A stretch of 29,612 nt of DNA from a virus (lineage: Duplodnaviria; Heunggongvirae; Uroviricota; Caudoviricetes): the IMG/VR virus record IMGVR_UViG_2713896904_000009; one strand, written 5' to 3'. The number at the start of each line of letters is the position of its first letter. Position 1 is the first letter of the stretch. Shown piece after piece: positions 698 through 24,727 of this stretch. Below the pieces are notes generated by a model. The model saw only the letters and a program-made list of their open reading frames with translations. It made no database searches and was not told the DNA's origin. A program made the translations under genes and the position numbers.

Positions 698-1060
698 GGG
701 GCTGATTCTGGATTCGACGGGATTTGCGAAACCCAAGGTGCATGCCGAGGGGCGGTTGGCCTCGTAAAAAGCCGCAAAAAATAGTCGCAAACGACGAAAA
801 CTACGCTTTAGCAGCTTAATAACCTGCTTAGAGCCCTCTCTCCCTAGCCTCCGCTCTTAGGACGGGGATCAAGAGAGGTCAAACCCAAAAGAGATCGCGT
901 GGAAGCCCTGCCTGGGGTTGAAGCGTTAAAACTTAATCAGGCTAGTTTGTTAGTGGCGTGTCCGTCCGCAGCTGGCAAGCGAATGTAAAGACTGACTAAG
1001 CATGTAGTGCCGAGGATGTAGGAATTTCGGACGCGGGTTCAACTCCCGCCAGCTCCACCA
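698..1060 (+). ncRNA. ssrA: tmRNA (transfer-messenger RNA, 10Sa RNA)
   Basis: Begins GGGGCTGATTCTGGATTCGACGGG and ends GGGTTCAACTCCCGCCAGCTCCACCA (tRNA-Ala-like acceptor/T-arm with CCA); about 363 nt, directly downstream of smpB. Confidence 0.95.
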
Positions 1061-1187
1061 ATCATGATTGGACGGTGTAAGGACAACACCAGCAAAAACA
1101 GGAAGTTAGAAGTCTCAGCAGGACACCGACCAGACGGTGAGGGGACAAAAAAGGATACGCAAAGGAGCCGCGGCTCCCGAGTGACAT

Positions 1188-1216
1188 AAAAGCCCGCTTA
1201 CGCGGGCTTTTTGTTT
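1188..1216 (+). terminator. rho-independent terminator-like hairpin
   Basis: Stem AGCCCGC / GCGGGCT with TTAC loop (1191-1208) followed by a T-rich tract TTTTTGTTT. Confidence 0.5.
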
Positions 1217-1483
1217 ATGCTCATTCTCCACACTCAATGCGACCACAAACAACAGCCCACTTTTCTTTCAGTATGGACTGTCACCGTCATGCCAGCCTTT
1301 TAGCCATAACTGATGTAAGCGTCTGCTATGAGCGAGATATAGTCATTCATTTCTTCGTTTCTTCAGAACACCTATATTGTTCTGAGGTGAACATATCACC
1401 TCCGTTCAAGCAACCAAATTCTGTGTGCCATTACAGAAGGATATAATGCCGGGAAACTGTGCGCCGAATGTCAGGTTAGTGCG

Positions 1484-2089
1484 TCATCCCTTCATTAGGG
1501 TTACTAGTTGCCTAAAGTCATCCATATATTCTTGTCCGAACGTTTTAAAATAAGGTTCAAAACGCGTGATAATGTCCGTGATTACTGGTCCCAGAATCGA
1601 CCTGAACTGAGCGATATCAATACGGTTATTTACAACGGAGAAACGGACCTGTTCAAAATAGTTTGAGACCAGAATAACCGACTGTTTGAGCTCCTCATCT
1701 GCTTTGATTCTTTCGACCAGAGCGTTATCACTTAATGATGACCTAGCTTCTTTTATTTCCCGAGTCAATTTCCTGGCCGAGAAAAGATGAGGGTCATCCC
1801 ATTTTTCAATCAGGCGAAACGTATTCTCAATTTTTTCTGCCATCCTGCTTTCCACTGCGTTTGTAGCATTGATATACAGTGGCAGTATGACACCGAGTCC
1901 ACCTAGACACAGGGAGACGGTTTTCGTGACCTCAATAAATACACTACTGCCTAAAGGGGGGGGACTATTATATGCAATCATGGCAAGCCCCCCAGTTCCA
2001 ATAACGCAAAGAATGATGATTACCCAGAATAAATGCCATTTGTATTTCAAGTGAGGCTCCTGCCAGAAATGATGTAACTTTACGGTCAC
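1484..2089 (-). CDS. hypothetical inner-membrane protein (two predicted N-terminal TM helices plus about 120-aa soluble domain); att-proximal moron
   Basis: 201-aa ORF with a GTG start at 2089 and no clear SD; an alternative ATG at 1981 is preceded by GGGGGG. Hydrophobic segments WHLFWVIIILCVIGTGGLAMIAY and VSLCLGGLGVILPLYI. No catalytic motif recognised. Confidence 0.55.
   Translation of the reverse strand: MTVKLHHFWQEPHLKYKWHLFWVIIILCVIGTGGLAMIAYNSPPPLGSSVFIEVTKTVSLCLGGLGVILPLYINATNAVESRMAEKIENTFRLIEKWDDPHLFSARKLTREIKEARSSLSDNALVERIKADEELKQSVILVSNYFEQVRFSVVNNRIDIAQFRSILGPVITDIITRFEPYFKTFGQEYMDDFRQLVTLMKG
1956..1963. repeat. G8/C8 homopolymeric tract inside the membrane-protein ORF
   Basis: Eight consecutive G on the plus strand, read as CCC CCC CC (Pro-Pro-Pro) in the minus-strand ORF. 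Confidence 0.9.
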
Positions 2090-2402
2090 GCCGGGGATAT
2101 TGTCATTTCAGTTTGTCAGACTGGTGTGCCGGCCTATTATTATTGTCGGGAAGATCATGAGATGGCAAGAGATGAATATCAGTGATGGGAGACATTAAAA
2201 ACAGTTATGTAGGGCGAAACTGAGCCAGTACTGGGAAACTGGAAACGTCTTTCAAACTCCTTACGGCGAGATCTGGCGTTACTGCTAGATCATTATGAAT
2301 GTGTCAGTAATCCATCAAAATCTTTGCGAATGTATCCATTTCTTTCAACTTGAGCAGATAGCACGATGCCTTAAGGCTGTTTATTTATACAGTTTAAAAT
2401 AA

Positions 2403-2422
2403 TACTGTATATAAAAATAGTA
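2403..2422. promoter_or_regulatory. putative LexA (SOS) box upstream of the dinI-like gene
   Basis: TACTGTATATAAAAATAGTA fits the CTGT-N8-ACAG consensus with one mismatch (ATAG for ACAG); lies 12 nt upstream of the dinI-like start and overlaps an AT-rich -10-like region. Confidence 0.45.
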
Positions 2423-2434
2423 TAGGGTGTTTTT

Positions 2435-2683
2435 ATGCGTATTGAGATCTGCATAGCCAAAGAGAAAATGACTAAACTGCCAAACAGTGCTGTGGATGCG
2501 TTAAAGGGAGAATTAACCCGACGCATCAGTAAGCGTTATGACGATGTAGAAGTGATCGTAAAAGCCACCAGCAATGATGGGCTTTCTATTACACGCACCG
2601 CAGATAAGGATTCTGCAAAAACTTTTGTTCAGGAGACTCTGAAAGATACCTGGGAGTCTGCTGACGAGTGGTTTGTTCACTAA
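2435..2683 (+). CDS. DinI-like damage-inducible protein
   Basis: 82-aa ORF starting [11 protein letters not shown]... and ending ...[11 protein letters not shown], matching the DinI family signature (MRIEV.IAK ... ETWESADDWF) as I recall it; typical prophage cargo. Confidence 0.85.
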
Positions 2684-2751
2684 TTAGCACGTAAAATCTG
2701 TAACGGCTGGAAATCATTCAATACTCGCACTATCGGAAGTTCACCAGCCAG

Positions 2752-2966
2752 CCGCAGCACGTTATTGCGTACAACGTGTCTGCGGCATACCACAAAACGA
2801 TTACTCCATAACAGGGACTGCAGGCCACTCAATATCCGGTGCTACTGATATATCAACTCGGTTCAGCAACACCCGATATGTCTTCCATGCCGCCAGTAAC
2901 GATGTCTCCTCCTCCGTCGCAATATCCAAATCTACGGCATCCTGAAGTGGCGCAATATGCTCACTG
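2752..2966. repeat. direct repeat copy 1 (tail-fibre-assembly 3' end plus downstream hairpin)
   Basis: About 215 bp roughly 85 percent identical by eye to 3803-4016; includes inverted repeat CCGCAGCACGTT-N9-AACGTGtCTGCGG (2752-2785). Confidence 0.7.
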
Positions 2967-3070
2967 AATTCCTGGATGAAGAACTGTGTGGTGACGGTCT
3001 TCCAACCATTCGGCTCCTGCTGTATCGAAGAATACCAGACTATTTCAATATCGCTATGCCGTGGCATCAT
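2801..3070 (-). CDS. short tail-fibre-assembly-like protein (conserved C-terminal domain only; possible remnant or alternative chaperone)
   Basis: 89-aa ORF; last about 54 aa ([45 protein letters not shown]) closely parallel the C-terminus of the full Tfa at 3850-4434; N-terminal 35 aa are unique. Confidence 0.55.
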
Positions 3071-3126
3071 TTAACCCCTTGTAATTCATCGCAATAATTG
3101 ATTTAATTCACAAATAAAACTATAAC

Positions 3127-3795
3127 ATGGTGAAATTAATGAAAAAAAACACAGATGATGGGGCTAAAATTTACACACCACTTACCCTAAAGCTTTATGA
3201 CTGGTGGGTTTTGAGAGTATCAAATCGGCTTGCATGGGGATGTCCTACAAAGGAACACCTTCTTCCACACTTTCTGGAACATTTAGGTAACAACCATCTG
3301 GATATTGGTGTTGGAACTGGGTTTTACCTTACTCACGTACCTGAGAGTAGTCTGATATCTTTAATGGATTTGAACGAAGCTAGCCTGAACGCGGCATCTA
3401 CAAGGGCAGGGAAATCAAAAATTAAACATAAAATTAGCCATGATGTTTTTGAACCTTATCCCGCGGCGTTACATGGTCAATTTGATTCCATTTCCATGTT
3501 TTACCTTCTTCACTGCCTGCCTGGAAATATATCTACAAAAAGCAGTGTAATACGCAATGCGGCGCAGGCCTTAACTGACGATGGAACTCTATACGGAGCC
3601 ACAATTCTTGGCGATGGAGTTGTGCACAATAGCTTCGGTCAAAAACTGATGCGCATTTACAATCAGAAAGGCATCTTTTCAAACACAAAAGATTCCGAAG
3701 AAGGCTTAACACATATACTCTCAGAGCATTTCGAGAATGTTAAAACCAAGGTTCAAGGTACTGTAGTAATGTTTTCCGCTTCAGGAAAAAAATAG
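3127..3795 (+). CDS. class I SAM-dependent methyltransferase (substrate unknown); moron
   Basis: 222-aa ORF with a Rossmann motif-I-like LDIGVGTGFY; AT-rich relative to the flanking tail genes; opposite strand to the late operon. Confidence 0.65.
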   Translation: MVKLMKKNTDDGAKIYTPLTLKLYDWWVLRVSNRLAWGCPTKEHLLPHFLEHLGNNHLDIGVGTGFYLTHVPESSLISLMDLNEASLNAASTRAGKSKIKHKISHDVFEPYPAALHGQFDSISMFYLLHCLPGNISTKSSVIRNAAQALTDDGTLYGATILGDGVVHNSFGQKLMRIYNQKGIFSNTKDSEEGLTHILSEHFENVKTKVQGTVVMFSASGKK

Positions 3796-3802
3796 CATTC
3801 AA

Positions 3803-4016
3803 CCGCAGCACGTTCTTGCTTAAGACTTGCTGCGGCATAATCCCAATGATTACTCCCTGACAGGGTTCGTAGGCCACTCAATATCAGGTGCAGTTGATGT
3901 ATCAACACGGTTCAGCAACACCCGATACTTTTTCCAGGCTTCCAGTAACGATGTCTCCTCCTCCGTCGCAATATTCAAATCTACGGCATCCTGAAGTGGC
4001 GCAATATTCTCACTGG
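3803..4016. repeat. direct repeat copy 2 (tail-fibre-assembly 3' end plus downstream hairpin)
   Basis: Homologous to 2752-2966; includes inverted repeat CCGCAGCA-N17-TGCTGCGG (3803-3835) between the convergent methyltransferase and tfa genes. Confidence 0.7.
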
Positions 4017-4434
4017 CTACCCGCATTAGGCTGTTTTTTGTTTCTTCCGCCTCCCGTATCCGAAACAGTTTTTCTGCTTCTGCATCTTTCACCCAAATTA
4101 TGCCGTTCCACTTCTGATATTCCCCATCCGGCGACAACCAGGTGACATTTTCCGGTAACGGGCCGAGTTCAGAAATAAATAACGCGTCCCCTGATGCCAC
4201 GTCATAGACCGTTTTTTCCCTGTGGTCTTCAACGAGATGCCATGATGTATCCTCACTGTTAAAAACAGCCACGAAGCCAGCCGGAATATCTGGCGGTGCA
4301 ATATCGGTACTATTTGCAGGCAGACCTGTATGAGGGGGAATGTATGCATCACCTTCACCAATAAATTCATTGGTTCCGGCCAGCAGATTATAAATTTTTA
4401 TAGTCCGTGGTTGTTCACTCATTCTGAATGCCAT
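3850..4434 (-). CDS. tail fibre assembly protein (Tfa chaperone)
   Basis: 194-aa ORF starting [17 protein letters not shown] with conserved Tfa C-terminus; start ATG overlaps the stop of the upstream fibre gene (TAATG). Confidence 0.85.
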
Positions 4435-6122
4435 TATGCAAGCCTCACAATATAGTTAAATGCGATGTTTTTGACGGTGTTTTCCGCGTTACCAGCAGCG
4501 TTAACGGTGATGGTGTGTCCATGTGCACCCAGCGCCACAGTGTGTGCATGGGCACCAATACCTACGGTGTGGTTATGCTGACCAATATCGACTGTATGGG
4601 CGTGTGCTCCGTCAGAGCTTGACACCTGGTTGGTTCCTGACACCTGAACACGTTGTTTACCCCCAATGGAGTCACCACCGTAACGACCACCGACAGTGTG
4701 CGTATGCGCTCCTGTATTGTTTGTCGTTTTTGTGCCGTGGTTAAACGTGCTGACTGTTTTTGTCCCGTAATCAAACGAACTGGTTGTTTTCGTACCCAAA
4801 TCCGTACTGGATGCACTGGCACTGTGGGTATGCGATTTAATGCCGTCCTGTTCCTGAGACAATACAGCGCGACCACTGGCGGGTTTGCCCTTAATTGTCC
4901 AGCCACGCATATCAGGGATCACACCAGATGGGTAAGCTGCTGCAAGCAGGGGATAGGCAGCCTTGTCAAAAGTCTGCCCCTGCATAATCGCATAACCTTC
5001 CGGAACTATGTCCGAAGGCCAGGCTATTGGTGCCCCCACAGGAAAAGCATTAACAGGTTCAAATCCCCGTTCAAATCCATACCCATCACGGGATGAGCGG
5101 TAATAAAGCCCTCTGTTTTTATAATCCGCACGTAGCTGAAATGACCGGCAACTCCCTACACCACTAAAAAAATGAGCAACGATATATGAAGCGCCGCCGT
5201 CCATGACATTGTAAAGACCGCTTTTTGCGTTCCATGGCACCCCACCATCTGAACTCGGATACTGACCTGTACACCCAAGAGAAAAAGCATTTACATCTTC
5301 AGGTGATAACTTAATGTCAGATGACAGCGCGTGACCATTAACCTTACGTCCTGAGGGCACACGCCCGTTTGCATTGTCATTAGCAGCTTTCACTGCTTTC
5401 GGAGTCGCGGCAAGCGTTTCAGAGTCACTGTTAGTGGCGCTGCTTAACTGAACAATCCCTTTTCGTGCCGTGGTGGCGTCCTGTGCAGTGTATTTGCCAT
5501 CAGCAAGGTCATATGCTGTCTTAACCGCCTTTGATGTCGCTGCCTGTGTCTCACTGGTGCTGTTCACCGCACTGTTCAGTTGCACCAGACCTTTTTGCTT
5601 AGTCGTGGCATCCAGAACACCAAGAGACTCGCGGGATTCTTTTTGCGCGCCAGCTCCGCGCGCTTTTATTTCCTTCAGGTTCTGGTCAATGCGCAGAAAA
5701 AGTCCGTCTCCCGTTGCCACATTTAACGTGATGTTTGAGGTGTCAGATACAGCAAGCCGGAACTGCATATTGACACTGACACCGCCAACCGGTTTGTCAA
5801 TCGCCGGGCAGTTCGCCACGGCATACAATTCCCCTCCATCAGTCATCAGTCCCACTTCGCGGACTTTAAAACCTCCCGTTCCCGTTGGTAGCACAATTCT
5901 GGCCATGAGCTGTGTCGGCAGTTCCGGTGATACCACCAGCTCTGCAATATCTCCACGGTAGGTTTCATTAACAAGCTGCGTTTGTGCCGGATCGGGTTTC
6001 AGCGGTTTGCCATTACTGTCGCCAACCACAAACTGTGTCAGAATAATCTGGCTACCACTGGCAAGCGCTTCCGCCTCCAGTTCTTTTCCCCGGTTAGTAA
6101 TAATTGAATAATATTCAGCCAT
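4434..6122 (-). CDS. tail fibre protein (P2 gpH / Mu S-like N-terminus, His-rich C-terminal receptor-binding repeats)
   Basis: ATG at 6122 ([23 protein letters not shown]...), 2 nt after the gpI-like stop. Internal repeats ([31 protein letters not shown] / [31 protein letters not shown]) and C-terminal [21 protein letters not shown] repeats. Confidence 0.85.
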
Positions 6123-6678
6123 GAGACTCCCCGGCAAAAATATCCACATCGATATGTGCTGTCGTCGCACCTGAAATATAAAAAGCGCCATCCATCCCGA
6201 TATTCGCCAGAACATCTATTTTGCTCAGATGACTGCGCAGGTTTTTAGCCCGGTCAGTAAGCTGACGAATCTGGTGATACAGTGCATCGCTGACGCCCTG
6301 ACTGCTGTGAACTTCAATCCGGAATGTGTAGGGTGCAGCCTGCGGTGAATCCTGCCACCACTCCACGACAGTGGTCGGCAGGTTTACCGCCCCCAGAGAA
6401 CGCCTGACCGCACCCGCCGTTCCCCGGTGCTGGTGCACGTAAGCGGCGTCCTTAATCACCTGGCGCTTTTGTGTCTCTGTCCAGCTGTCATCCCAAAAAT
6501 CGACGGCATGTTCCCACGCAAGCCACGGTAAAAGATGTGCCGGGCAGCTGGCCGCATCTTTCACCTTACGCACCATGTTGGTATCCAGTGCGATGATGTG
6601 TTCTGTCGTCGCCTGCTCCTGCGCCCGTTCTTCATGAAATGCGCCCGGCGGCAGCAGGGAGCGAAATTTATCCGTCAT
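6115..6678 (-). CDS. baseplate/tail protein, P2 gpI-like
   Basis: 187 aa; motif [18 protein letters not shown]...KRQVIKDA...[10 protein letters not shown] parallels P2 gpI (LLPWLAW..VD.WD..W...KR.VI.DA..H.KGT.GA.RR) as I recall it. Confidence 0.85.
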
Positions 6679-20480: not shown

Positions 20481-22594
20481 AGCCAGCCTCCGTTACCACT
20501 GACCCCCAGCCAGCCGCCAGACAGTGGGCTGGCCTGTTCGGTGACGGCAACCGGAGATGAACGAGCGGATATCGCTTTTTTCACTCCCCTCTCCCCGGGG
20601 CGTTCCCCGTCAATAATGTCCGGATTTGTGTCCTGAGATGCCGCCCAGGCAGGCGGCTGCTCCCAGTCTCGGATTTTTTCGTAACCACGCAGAATAGCGA
20701 CGGCATGGGCATAGCAGAACAGGTCGAATGCTTCGTTGTTCCCTTTACCTGGCTTGCGCCATTTTCCGTCGCTGCCCCGCTCCTCATAAGTCAGCTCCTC
20801 ATAAAACCACTCACCGAGCCAGTCGGGAAAATGGATATACCCGGCCCCCGGGGTTTCACGCTCCAGATTATTGCTGAGTTGATCTTTGAGCAGATCGGTC
20901 TGCAACAGATATACCGGTACTTCGCCGCGGGCATCAGCCCGGCGATCGCTTCGTCCGGTATTATCAGGGTGTGTTCGGGTGATCACTTTCTGGCGACGGG
21001 TACTGTCACCTTTTATCAGGTATACCCGTTTTCCCAGACCATCACGGCGGCATGTGCGCCAGAACTTATACGCATTATCCGTCACACCATCCTCACCCCC
21101 ACTGTCCACAGCCATAGCCAGCACGGGCATACGGCGGGAAGGATTTGACTGGAGAGGGTATGTTTTCTCCAGCACATCCGTGATCAGCAACTGCCAGTCC
21201 TCAGGGTAAGAGCCCGGATGAATCGTCAGTGCCTCGCCGTTTTCATCACAGCGCAGGGACTGACGAATGTTATAGCGATCCACCAGCCAGCGTTCGCCGT
21301 TCTCACCGTAACCGATAATCTGCACCACAAAACGACGTTTCTTCCCGCCCTGTACATCCACCGATGCCAGCAGAAAACGCACCTTCGGTGGTACCAGACG
21401 TTTACCGTAGTCCTCCGCCCGCTGCATCAGTACATCAGCCCTGCGCTGTTCGGTCGCCGCGCGTGGCAGATAAGGTAAGCCCCAGTCAGTGTTGATCACC
21501 GTTTTCAGTGTTTCTTCACTGCCTGTGGTTTCATAGTCCTGCTCTGCCGTCAGTAATTTGTAAACCAGCTGTGCCCAGGTCTGGTAAGCCGCGGCGGGAC
21601 CTTCCATCCAGAAGGACGCGATGCGGGAACGACGGGCATCACCCGATATATTCCCGGCTTTATCAATGCTCTGACCTTCCCTGAGCCAGACGCCACGTCC
21701 GTTAAGCTCCCGCTTTTTATCAGCTGTGATCACCCCGTTACAGTGCGGGCAGACGATATGTGCCGCTTCACTGGCTTTTACCGGATCGGCAATATCCCGG
21801 TAACCGGTCATCGCCTCCATAGCAGGCTGAAAGTACCCACCACAGTGCGGACAGGGCCAGTACCATCGACGGCGATCACCGCGATTATATAAAGCCAGAA
21901 TACCGGTAGTGGGTGGCGCTTCATGGGGTGATTTTCGTCGCCATTTGGTATTGGTGATTTCCCGCCCTGGCGAGCTCTCCACCAGGGTCATGCCCGCCGA
22001 CATAAATGTGGTGGTTCGTTTTGAGGCCAGCGAAAAACCATCGCCTTCCCCGTCGATATCCTCCGGAAAACGGTCGTAATCCGTCAGTGCAACGCATTTA
22101 AAATCCGAGGATGACATGATGTTGACGGAGGGCCAGCCAATCTTGAGGTAGTTTCCGGCAAGAAACGTGCGGTCATGAACGTTGTTATCGTTACGCGACG
22201 GACTCAGCCTGCATGCCACTTCCGGGCTGACGCGAAATGTTCTGGCCAGACGTTTTTTGGAGTGTTCACGCGCTTTTTCTTCCGTCATCTGGACGATAAG
22301 CATATCCGACGGGTCACACACCACGTTGTACACCACCCAGCCGTCAATCAGCCCAATTGTTTTACCTGTTCGGGCCGGACCAACAAAAATAACAGCATCA
22401 TACTCACGTGATGCCAGGCAGTTCATCGGCTCCACGACATAGGGGGCGAGTTGCGGATCCCATTCGACGGAGTTTCCGACGCCCACGGGAACCCGCATGT
22501 ACTTATGAACGGCCTCGGCAACAGGCATCCGACGCGGTGCCTTTATGATCCCGGCGGTATTCTTTCTGACTTCCGCCGCCGTGGCCTGTCGCAT
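20477..22594 (-). CDS. terminase large subunit (lambda GpA family)
   Basis: 705 aa; paired Cys motifs (WPCPHCGGYF ... VCPHCNG) characteristic of GpA-type terminases as I recall; follows the small-subunit gene. Confidence 0.9.
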   Translation of the reverse strand: MRQATAAEVRKNTAGIIKAPRRMPVAEAVHKYMRVPVGVGNSVEWDPQLAPYVVEPMNCLASREYDAVIFVGPARTGKTIGLIDGWVVYNVVCDPSDMLIVQMTEEKAREHSKKRLARTFRVSPEVACRLSPSRNDNNVHDRTFLAGNYLKIGWPSVNIMSSSDFKCVALTDYDRFPEDIDGEGDGFSLASKRTTTFMSAGMTLVESSPGREITNTKWRRKSPHEAPPTTGILALYNRGDRRRWYWPCPHCGGYFQPAMEAMTGYRDIADPVKASEAAHIVCPHCNGVITADKKRELNGRGVWLREGQSIDKAGNISGDARRSRIASFWMEGPAAAYQTWAQLVYKLLTAEQDYETTGSEETLKTVINTDWGLPYLPRAATEQRRADVLMQRAEDYGKRLVPPKVRFLLASVDVQGGKKRRFVVQIIGYGENGERWLVDRYNIRQSLRCDENGEALTIHPGSYPEDWQLLITDVLEKTYPLQSNPSRRMPVLAMAVDSGGEDGVTDNAYKFWRTCRRDGLGKRVYLIKGDSTRRQKVITRTHPDNTGRSDRRADARGEVPVYLLQTDLLKDQLSNNLERETPGAGYIHFPDWLGEWFYEELTYEERGSDGKWRKPGKGNNEAFDLFCYAHAVAILRGYEKIRDWEQPPAWAASQDTNPDIIDGERPGERGVKKAISARSSPVAVTEQASPLSGGWLGVSGNGGWL

Positions 22595-22597
22595 GGC

Positions 22598-23116
22598 TTA
22601 CTCCTCTTGTGACAAACTGTCCTCCTGTTCCGGCGACTCTGCCAGCTCAACCTTCATGGCAATCTGATCCCGCAGGTCATCTATGACTTTTTGCACCCTG
22701 ACGACGGCTGACGGTGTCATTGCACAGTCACGCTCGAGAATATCCGGTAGCGTTTCCAGTACCTGAACGACAGCTTTTGCCATTGAGGCAAACTCCCGGC
22801 TGACTTCTGAGGCCGGGATAAGCTCTCCGGTCTCCTGCTGAAACTTGAGGCGCTCCCGCTCAGACTGAAACCACGCCTTTCGATCCGGCGGTGTCATTTT
22901 GTCAACAGCAACCAGCTCCGGCGTCGTAGTCCTGCCCAGTAATTCCCTGAGAATATCCAGAACTGAATACAGCTTGAGGCGGGAGTTACTTCCGGGGGCA
23001 GGCTCAACATTGCTCAGTCTACTTGCGACGGTCTGACGATGCAGATTAGTCAGCGCCGCCAGCTGGTTAATATTGAGGCGAAGATTTTTCAGTTCGTTAT
23101 CCATGATGGTGAACAA
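22598..23116 (-). CDS. terminase small subunit (HTH DNA-binding)
   Basis: 172 aa; N-terminal HTH-like LNINQLAALTNLHRQTVASRL, acidic C-terminus; stop 3 nt before the large-subunit start. Confidence 0.7.
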   Translation of the reverse strand: MFTIMDNELKNLRLNINQLAALTNLHRQTVASRLSNVEPAPGSNSRLKLYSVLDILRELLGRTTTPELVAVDKMTPPDRKAWFQSERERLKFQQETGELIPASEVSREFASMAKAVVQVLETLPDILERDCAMTPSAVVRVQKVIDDLRDQIAMKVELAESPEQEDSLSQEE

Positions 23117-23990: not shown

Positions 23991-24267
23991 CCGCAACAGC
24001 CATTTTGATATCTTCCTGGGTTCTCTGTGACTCCAGTGCGATCTGCTGTTTTGCATGCTGGTTAGCCTCCAGTACTGTATTGACGATTTGCAGTGATTGC
24101 AGGACGTTATTGGTAATGGCAGTTGCCGATTTGGCATTTTGTACAGCCTCATCAGCACGTCTCTTTTCGTGCTGATATTTGCTGTAGTAGTGGTTGGCTG
24201 ACCAGATGAAAGAACTGACGACAGTTAAAAGGAATGCAGCGATAACCAGCTTATAGCTCAACTTCAT
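23875..24267 (-). CDS. i-spanin Rz-like protein
   Basis: 130 aa with N-terminal TM helix (LVIAAFLLTVVSSFIWSANHYY) and coiled-coil periplasmic domain; directly downstream of the endolysin. Confidence 0.8.
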   Translation of the reverse strand: MKLSYKLVIAAFLLTVVSSFIWSANHYYSKYQHEKRRADEAVQNAKSATAITNNVLQSLQIVNTVLEANQHAKQQIALESQRTQEDIKMAVADDDCASRPVPAAAADRLRKYADSLRERSGDTTATQPDV

Positions 24268-24727
24268 TTACCACCCCACCAGCCTCTTTAAATCGGGCAA
24301 TCAGGTCACCGATTTTATGTTCATACTGACCGTAACCTGCACCGGGTAATGAAGCCCATATATTGCTGCAACGGTCGATTGCCTGACGAATATCGCCGCG
24401 ATCAATCATCGGCAAAGCGCCACGCTCTTTAATCTGTTGCAGTGCCACAGCGTCCTGGTTTTTTGGAGAGAAGTCTTTCAGGCCAAGCTGTTTACAGTAA
24501 GCATCCCACCAGCGTGAAAGAATCTGATAACGACCAGCTGCTGTTGATTTAAGTTTCGGGTTTAGTGTGACAAGTTTGCGAGGATGATCGGAGTAATCAG
24601 TGAATAGTTCGCCTCCAACAATAACGTCATAACCGTGGTTACATGTCGGTTGCCGTCCATTATCCGTTCCTTCTGACCATGCCACCATATCGAGGAAAGC
24701 TTTACGCTGGGAATTTAGTACCTGCAT
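24251..24727 (-). CDS. endolysin, lambda R-like lytic transglycosylase
   Basis: 158 aa; NQRKAFLDMVAWSEGTDNGRQ...HGYDVIVGGELFTDYSDHPRKLVTLNPKLKST...RYQ is near-identical to lambda R as I recall it. Confidence 0.95.
   Translation of the reverse strand: MQVLNSQRKAFLDMVAWSEGTDNGRQPTCNHGYDVIVGGELFTDYSDHPRKLVTLNPKLKSTAAGRYQILSRWWDAYCKQLGLKDFSPKNQDAVALQQIKERGALPMIDRGDIRQAIDRCSNIWASLPGAGYGQYEHKIGDLIARFKEAGGVVNEVEL

Follow-up and report, generated by a model that had tools for sequence, protein, structure and literature searches.

Direct tfa-derived repeats bracket the methyltransferase gene ybcY in a probable moron cassette of an SfV-like Escherichia coli prophage

Analysis of a 29,612-nucleotide stretch of viral DNA (the window) revealed a methyltransferase gene and a short open reading frame (ORF) enclosed by two direct repeats, and we consider it probable (roughly 0.8) that this segment is a ybcY-tfaX moron cassette residing in the classic cargo slot that separates the tail fibre assembly gene tfa from the prophage end. 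The two genes are ybcY and tfaX of the DLP12 prophage of E. coli K-12. In this interpretation, direct repeats of ~218 bp lie beside the resident tfa because the cassette brings along a second sequence for the Tfa C-terminal domain together with a terminator hairpin. Comparison of loci showed that the repeat ranks among the most conserved stretches common to otherwise unrelated temperate coliphages and that it acts as a homology arm. As this arm is so widely conserved, ordinary homologous recombination can insert the cassette into unrelated phage types or remove it from them, which makes the cassette a concrete case of a cargo gene that carries its own homology arm, taken from highly conserved temperate-coliphage sequence. 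Both ybcY and tfaX are already catalogued genes, their gain and loss at this position is ordinary phage mosaicism brought about by a standard mechanism, and current ideas are not overturned.

Setting of the segment, the direct repeats and the chimeric tfaX gene

The window starts with smpB (1-483), followed by the tmRNA gene ssrA (698-1060, plus strand; found by ARAGORN and by Rfam RF00023 with 294 bits, and present in the annotation of strain EC2), which is the chromosomal site adjoining the prophage end. The prophage combines lambdoid Q and lysis genes with SfV/Chris1-like head and contractile-tail genes, and its region 2400-4500 is 100% identical in the E. coli urinary isolate EC2 and in three wastewater isolates. 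On the ssrA side of the segment lies a dinI-like gene (2435-2683, plus strand; Pfam PF06183, E = 9e-19) that borders the cargo slot on its left side in many lambdoid prophages, whether the site is empty or filled. Alignments revealed that a conserved junction sequence of ~65 bp (2684-2748), leading from dinI to the first hairpin of the segment, recurs in phage lambda upstream of ea47. On the other side, the full-length tfa gene (3850-4434, minus strand; 194 aa; phrog_105) matches positions 1-130 of the Pfam profile PF02413 (E = 2e-43), and its start codon overlaps the stop codon of the tail fibre gene at 4434, with the full-length domain located directly downstream of the fibre gene. The latter (4434-6215, minus strand; Pfam Phage_tail_fib, Phage_fiber_2 and Collar, as well as annotation) is given here as the longest ORF, the RefSeq start in the identical strain EC2 being ~93 nt further in, and is followed by baseplate genes when reading away from ssrA. 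The prophage end also carries a gene for a DUF4760 membrane protein (1484-2089, minus strand; Pfam PF15956, phrog_26526), a further AT-rich cargo gene at this end.

Comparison of the window to itself by blastn revealed direct repeats at 2749-2966 and 3800-4015 that share 84.9% identity over 218 columns (31 mismatches, 2 gaps, E = 1e-66), and these are the only two copies across the 29.6 kb. A reading made from the sequence alone had proposed direct repeats of ~215 bp and ~85 percent identity, and both copies map within 3 bp of where it had placed them. Each repeat begins with a stable hairpin, located at 2751-2786 in the left copy (-21.5 kcal/mol, z-score -3.9) and at 3803-3835 in the right copy (-17.2 kcal/mol, z-score -3.6), and both hairpins are stable on either strand with z-scores of about -3 to -4. 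Past the hairpin, each repeat consists of the last ~54 codons of a minus-strand ORF of the Caudo_TAP (PF02413) family: the left repeat holds the part of tfaX that encodes a Tfa C-terminal domain and the right repeat the 3' end of the resident tfa. The stretch enclosed by the repeats consists of the methyltransferase gene, 38 codons unique to the short ORF and, between these two, a spacer of 57 bp. Pfam matches and folding energies thus agree with the earlier proposal that the repeats comprise the C-terminal coding part of a tfa-like gene plus a hairpin, just as ORFs, Pfam and GC content bear out the unique N-terminal part of the short ORF and the AT-rich methyltransferase gene on the opposite strand that it had placed between them. 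Synonymous changes are somewhat over-represented among the differences that separate the two copies (pN/pS of 0.375).

The short ORF, tfaX (2801-3070, minus strand), encodes 89 residues, matches only positions 73-130 of the 131 Caudo_TAP profile positions and belongs over its full length to phrog_2341 (E = 1e-51), a family of constant length. Residues 1-37 are homologous to the N-terminus of phrog_3893 (match at 2-37) and residues ~38-89 make up the Tfa C-terminal domain. Moreover, a full-length phrog_3893 member, a 79-residue ORF of Klebsiella phage Kp4882-3, shares the N-terminus of tfaX and ends in an unrelated C-terminus. From these alignments, tfaX is a chimera in which a phrog_3893-like N-terminus is fused to a Tfa C-terminal domain. 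(The ORF that follows the phrog_3893 gene in the Klebsiella phage was considered as UmuD-like, which Pfam did not confirm.) Tfa proteins are built from a variable fibre-binding N-terminal domain and a conserved C-terminal helical trimerisation domain (PMC9608196), and of this two-domain architecture tfaX retains the C-terminal domain alone, the fibre-binding domain being absent.

Composition of the cassette and its gain and loss

We surveyed 90 cassette loci from IMG/VR, GTDB genomes and GenBank phages, the IMG/VR loci being non-independent samples, such that the percentages derived from the survey are rough. In nearly all of these loci the start of tfaX is located exactly 57 bp from that of ybcY, and the two genes travel as a fixed pair joined by a divergent spacer (3071-3126 in the window). 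The right-hand neighbour of ybcY is variable: about 40% of the loci feature a full 194-residue tfa at this position, and others feature tfa remnants of 39-58 codons, a 97-residue phrog_1443 membrane protein (as in phage ev243) or an IpaH-type NEL effector. On the basis that the tfaX-ybcY spacing is constant while the right-hand neighbour varies, the left repeat belongs to the cassette, and the right one represents the resident tfa or its remains.

The spacer contains promoter-like hexamers (TTAACC-16-AATAAT at 3071-3098 and TTGATT-17-TATAAC at 3098-3126) that are not enriched over shuffled sequences. Genomic SELEX with K-12 components in vitro located an RpoD-holoenzyme site and H-NS binding in the ybcY/tfaX spacer (PMC3946193). 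Judging from the consensus matches and this K-12 in vitro study, on which our promoter and terminator assignments are based, ybcY probably has its own sigma-70 promoter within the 57 bp. Its stop codon is followed by a stable hairpin that is devoid of a U-run on the plus strand, and ybcY would end at this hairpin, sharing it with the convergent tfa.

The sequence-only reading had inferred that the methyltransferase arrived, or can leave, through homologous recombination of tfa-like sequences. Alignment of related prophages supports this view, as the junction segment is polymorphic among lambdoid prophages at yecD, with the cassette present in two of them (L109 and L110) and absent from two others (L111 and L112). 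L109 and the empty L112 occupy the same site and encode the same DinI protein, with an identity of 98.8% across 3.6 kb to the left and of 99.73% across 3.7 kb to the right. Both alignments extend over the single repeat copy of L112 (231 bp), and the two prophages therefore differ by exactly one repeat plus the unique segment. In the empty alleles the single copy is of the right-hand type and switches to left-flank sequence within its first ~20 bp, a pattern that is compatible both with an originally empty site and with a deletion. In L110, left-type and right-type sites alternate as a mosaic within the left copy, which indicates exchange between the copies.

We also searched complete E. coli genomes with a synthetic "excised" junction in which window positions 2300-2966 were joined to 4017-4700. 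In many lambdoid prophages, this search uncovered an uninterrupted run of dinI, junction sequence, hairpin and full tfa that matches the query at 88-90% identity, and empty dinI-tfa sites were found at dusA and prfC as well. The same search of complete E. coli genomes returned no empty relative of the ssrA prophage at 95% identity or more. Near-identical prophages at ssrA occur in only four genomes, all with the cassette, and excision in this very strain is therefore an extrapolation. At locus L021 the slot is taken by a different small cargo that is flanked by its own degenerate tfa 3' remnant.

The positions at which homology between loci ends pointed in the same direction. Over 3141-3940 the window is 98-100% identical to other cassettes, and this identity falls to ~80% at 2841-2940 and to ~78% at 3941-3990, inside both repeats, with sharp drops at about 2940 and about 3940. 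Across the 90 loci the homology ends cluster at 2823-2832, 2728, 3835, 3944, 3974 and 4562, and this clustering of breakpoints inside both repeats likewise speaks for the recombination that had been claimed. On the left side, no fewer than six distinct contexts are joined in the final codons of tfaX or immediately beyond them, and the C-terminal alleles found at these joins are those of full-length tfa genes (for example, the ending EEPDTM occurs in the tfa of L020 and in many tfaX alleles). Together, these alignments support gain or loss of the segment by homologous recombination at the conserved tfa end.

We propose that the repeat goes back to an old illegitimate join to which a small, unrelated phage gene contributed the 5' end and a tfa gene the 3' part. 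Thereafter, in-register crossovers might move the cassette between lambdoid siphoviruses and SfV-like myoviruses, and out-of-register crossovers might add or delete it, a single unequal crossover between co-resident phage genomes being enough to gain or drop the cassette. An in-register crossover into a new background could thus explain why the cassette is present in lambdoid siphoviruses and in this SfV-like myovirus. Transfer of a comparable element, the sopE cassette, between phage families was reportedly described by Mirold et al. in 2001.

Related slots and alternative accounts of the duplicated tfa sequence

The closest known counterpart is the DLP12 remnant of K-12, with the gene order tfaD'-ybcY'-tfaX'-appY-ompT, which carries the same cassette (98.8% nucleotide identity in ybcY) and, like the window, has the 57-bp divergent spacer with tfaX on the left and tfa on the right. 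By contrast, the DLP12 copies are all pseudogenes (through a frameshift in ybcY, an internal stop in tfaX and truncation of tfaD), whereas the ORFs of the window are intact, and DLP12 is a lambdoid remnant at argU, whereas the window element is an SfV-like myovirus prophage at ssrA. The slot in the b-region of phage lambda is similar in that ea47, like ybcY, is the next gene after tfa and lies on the opposite strand. The same terminator-like hairpin stands on either side of ea47, in direct orientation, and the distal copy is followed by the junction sequence found at 2684-2748 of the window. Lambda differs in that only the hairpin is duplicated, the tfa coding end being single, and in that the cargo is ea47 and not a methyltransferase. 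More generally, the position after a tail fibre assembly gene is a recognised site for morons, which run against the tail genes (PMC3573123). Morons that follow tfa in P2-like and lambdoid phages, such as neaT in phi-b0847 of CFT073, Z/fun of P2 and the sopE cassette, occupy the same slot and resemble ybcY in being single AT-rich accessory genes that run counter to the tail genes, vary from one related phage to the next and are shared by unrelated phage types (PMC3573123). The cassette is present or absent at the same position among close relatives, and the base composition of ybcY is unlike that of the neighbouring phage genes (GC of 0.39-0.41 versus 0.50-0.59 in the tail genes, for which a value of about 50% is also given). 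Unlike the other morons after tfa, the ybcY cassette possesses its own copy of the Tfa C-terminal domain sequence, such that the homology arm travels with the cargo.

We weighed the possibility that the duplicated sequence is itself of use to the tail, with tfaX acting as a functional second tail fibre chaperone, or as a modulator that uses the C-terminal domain common to both proteins to co-oligomerise with Tfa, in a two-chaperone module. This reading draws on the constant-length family to which tfaX belongs (phrog_2341), on the fact that its conserved part is the trimerisation domain (PMC9608196), and on the finding that tfaX is intact (86-110 residues) in about three quarters of the sampled loci with a summed pairwise dN/dS of 0.16 in its Tfa-like part, for which residual function could be the reason instead of imported variation. 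Against it, the Pfam match restricted to positions 73-130 leaves out the fibre-binding N-terminal domain, for which the N-terminus of the unrelated phrog_3893 is substituted, and the 38 unique codons exhibit a dN/dS of 0.69. Furthermore, nonsense mutations or frameshifts have reduced tfaX to forms of 33-68 residues in about a quarter of the loci, including the K-12 pseudogene, the RefSeq annotation lists it as a partial pseudogene, and it occurs where the fibre has no lambda-type Tfa partner, as in ev243. Variation that recombination brought in from functional tfa genes can account for the low dN/dS of the Tfa-like part. We therefore regard a second chaperone as unlikely, and the suggestion of the sequence-only reading that the short ORF belongs to an "alternative tfa module" is not supported, given that this ORF lacks the fibre-binding domain, is a chimera involving a small phage gene of unrelated origin and occurs in disrupted form in about a quarter of the loci. 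Because it is broken this often, tfaX is more plausibly a fossil of the illegitimate join, probably non-functional and retained as a homology arm.

Two further accounts place the repeats outside of the protein-coding remnants or outside of homologous recombination. It is very improbable that the repeats are copies of a small-RNA gene, the Rfam family IS009 (RF02111), and thus an RNA element. IS009 is linked to prophage sequences (bioRxiv 10.64898/2026.05.13.724894), and its model scores 201.8 bits in the right region (3893-4091, minus strand; gathering score 117) and 103.1 bits in the left region (2844-3073). The strong match nevertheless lies wholly within the intact 194-residue tfa ORF and on its coding strand, while the left match is below threshold, aligns well over the Tfa-homologous part only and has a 38-nt stretch in place of 12 model positions. 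Along with the few base pairs in the model and the skew towards synonymous changes, seen between the copies (pN/pS) and across the Tfa-like part of tfaX alleles (dN/dS), this argues that the IS009 family most likely models tfa coding or pseudogene sequence. Duplicated tfa sequences beside tail fibre genes are typical of invertible host-range segments (Mu, P1, e14). The window shares with the Mu G, P1 C and e14 P segments the presence of such duplicated sequences next to a tail fibre gene, and IS elements are found near some cassette copies (for example in L023 and EC2), so that a site-specific invertible or shufflon-like fibre-switching region, a descendant of one, or a transposable-element insertion had to be considered. 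Unlike those segments, however, the window has repeats in direct orientation and neither an invertase nor a second fibre tip: no recombinase or invertase ORF is present within 1061-6215, where besides the segment and tfa only the DUF4760 and dinI-like genes lie between ssrA and the fibre gene, and no alternative fibre C-terminus was detected there. Nor did scanning of 2700-4100 reveal terminal inverted repeats, a transposase or a short target duplication around 2967-3799, the sole inverted pair being one of 21 nt with a 76% match, and repeats of 218 bp at 85% identity are far too long and too diverged for a target-site duplication. As inverted repeats, recombinase and target duplication are all missing, inversion and transposition were ruled out as exceedingly improbable, in favour of the ybcY-tfaX cassette.

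The YbcY methyltransferase

The ybcY ORF (3127-3795, plus strand; 222 residues as listed) matches the Pfam families Methyltransf_12, 23, 25 and 11 and, over residues 5-222, phrog_2132. Since the PHROG and homologue alignments begin at residue 5, a methionine that is invariant among the homologues, the true start is probably the ATG at 3139 and not the listed position 3127, which would yield a protein of 218 residues. The annotation of phage PhiR26_1 names the gene YbcY, and intact copies are found in lambdoid phages such as PhiR26_1, 2G7b and ev243. At a nucleotide identity of at least 95%, ybcY is present in 3825 of 5426 complete E. coli genomes (~70%), with a median of one and a maximum of four copies per genome, a prevalence that is probably due in part to the widely retained DLP12 remnant. 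In K-12 and several phages its neighbour is ompT, and it lies at the end of the prophage, beside either the integrase gene or the junction with the chromosome. With such a distribution and its annotation in DLP12, the methyltransferase is not the unusual cargo that it had been taken for. The summed pairwise dN/dS of ybcY is 0.19, and YbcY has been shown to be an intact enzyme under purifying selection, so that the cassette draws attention to a maintained methyltransferase in about 70% of complete E. coli genomes.

YbcY displays the hallmarks of class I SAM-dependent methyltransferases, namely a Rossmann-like fold, a glycine-rich motif I and an acidic residue that ends strand 2. The AlphaFold model is a confident Rossmann-type structure (pLDDT 89.6, pTM 0.86), and the SAM-motif residues D59, G61, G63, G65 and D81 are invariant across 40 YbcY homologues, which also share the family-specific motifs YDWWVL...SN...W.C.T near the N-terminus and YNxKGIFSN near the C-terminus. 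Sequence searches yielded only weak matches to JHAMT and UbiG, and no curated NCBIfam equivalog model reached its cut-off. At the level of the fold, the model resembles PmtA, a bacterial phosphatidylethanolamine (PE) N-methyltransferase (8ys9), juvenile hormone acid methyltransferase (7ec0), UbiG (4kdc), RebM (3bus) and MM_2633 (3dtn), with a sequence identity to these structures of only 12-21%. The sequence-only reading had suggested that the enzyme could modify a host surface or a small-molecule target; fold classification goes as far as putting YbcY among small-molecule and lipid methyltransferases, and we infer from the predicted structure that it may act on a small molecule or a lipid. 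Here, we treat ybcY as a typical moron that is probably silenced by H-NS and probably encodes a cytoplasmic methyltransferase of this kind.

We tentatively entertain, as a possibility well short of probable, a joint reading in which YbcY brings about lysogenic conversion by methylating a lipid or small molecule of the host, and the Tfa fragment is kept specifically as a portable homology arm. If so, candidate substrates would include a phospholipid head group, as for PmtA, or a toxic heterocycle or thiol, as for Rv0560c or TmtA, and a selectable phenotype of the lysogen would explain why ybcY is kept intact, under purifying selection and in most E. coli. The portable Tfa C-terminal-domain fragment would then allow the cassette to hop among unrelated tailed-phage types.

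Our literature searches on ybcY and tfaX retrieved no functional study and no reported function or phenotype, and in one Hha-toxicity screen a K-12 ybcY mutant behaved like wild type. No conserved neighbour or operon partner that would hint at a pathway was seen in the phage contexts or around distant homologues (from Enterobacter, Salmonella, plasmid and IS-flanked copies and a MAG). Stand-alone genes for YbcY homologues of 55-70% identity are widespread across Enterobacterales, on chromosomes, on plasmids and in IS-flanked settings.

Start codon of ybcY and mobility of its homologues

The open reading frame listed for the methyltransferase gene ybcY starts at ATG 3127 (window 3127-3795, +), and its homologues and the PHROG profile start at residue 5 of the encoded protein. 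On this basis, ATG 3139, which has GGTGA upstream, is the more likely methyltransferase start of the two; the TTGATT-17-TATAAC promoter, a prediction for K-12, would lie directly against ATG 3127. In Salmonella enterica (comparison loci L105/L106, 5001-5663), a YbcY homologue with 56% identity is encoded by a stand-alone chromosomal gene whose neighbours are a PMT_2 glycosyltransferase gene and a Ni_hydr_CYTB-family (cytochrome b) gene. Another homologue, with 88% identity (L103/L104), was found in IS-flanked and in CcdAB/integrase contexts, so that more than one type of mobile element carries members of the YbcY family.

Relatives of the cassette and of its borders

Searches with Rfam matched the IS009 model (RF02111, classified by Rfam as type gene) to the coding strand of the full-length tail fibre assembly gene tfa at window 3893-4091 (-), with 201.8 bits and thus above the gathering score, and to the copy in the chimeric short ORF tfaX at 2844-3073 (-), with 103 bits. 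IS009 seems to be a model of the 3' half of a tail-fibre-assembly gene or pseudogene rather than of a separate RNA.

Phage Ayreon (MF807953, 2739-3087 of its locus) carries a ybcY-tfaX cassette that has lost 659 bp, corresponding to window 3101-3759, and with them nearly all of ybcY. What is left is the last 36 nt of this gene, the hairpin, a remnant of the tfa 3' end and a tfaX whose 5' end is truncated. Two direct copies of a hairpin of about 35 bp, the same as that found after tfa, lie on either side of ea47 in lambda (NC_001416, about 22557-22690 and 24200-24300), and a sequence of about 65 bp past the distal copy matches the one that separates dinI from the hairpin in the window, where this sequence and the hairpin together take up 2684-2786. 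Klebsiella phage Kp4882-3 harbours (region 3004-3571) a full-length 79-aa gene of the family phrog_3893, whose N-terminus is shared with tfaX; this gene overlaps a 130-aa ORF that contains the sequence GFPSPAADYIE. The latter resembles UmuD, but the ORF had no match in Pfam.

Other inserts near dinI and tfa

The position between dinI and tfa is occupied in E. coli WWCOL-256 (L021, 2808-3690) by a different insert of about 760 bp that encodes a 65-aa hypothetical ORF and is preceded by a degenerate tfa 3' remnant belonging to the insert, while the resident tfa has a different hairpin as terminator. In a prophage of E. coli GPEC389 that adjoins prfC, a gene for a macro-domain protein (L022, 3517-4419) is inserted so that it separates tfa from the side tail fibre gene. 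An IpaH-type type III effector gene, encoding LRR and a NEL E3 ligase domain (Pfam E 6e-77), directly adjoins ybcY in IMG/VR 2872152978 (L023, 5985-7628), with an IS element (transposase ORFs 3311-4515) on the far side of tfaX.

Prophage ends and the tail fibre gene

Between ssrA and dinI lies an AT-rich gene (window 1484-2089, -) for a DUF4760 protein (phrog_26526), a further uncharacterised cargo gene of the prophage end; judged by eye, the N-terminus of the protein looks hydrophobic. The longest tail-fibre ORF (window 4434-6215, -) shares about 100 nt with the gene upstream of it (6115-6678), and RefSeq places the start in the identical strain about 93 nt further in, giving a gene of 1689 bp. 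E. coli EC2 (NZ_CP058571) matches window 2400-4500 with 100% identity. In this strain (L001, 23716-24738), an IS1 cuts off the prophage just past the tail fibre gene and truncates a gene for a GABA permease as well, and dgcN nearby is interrupted by a second IS1.
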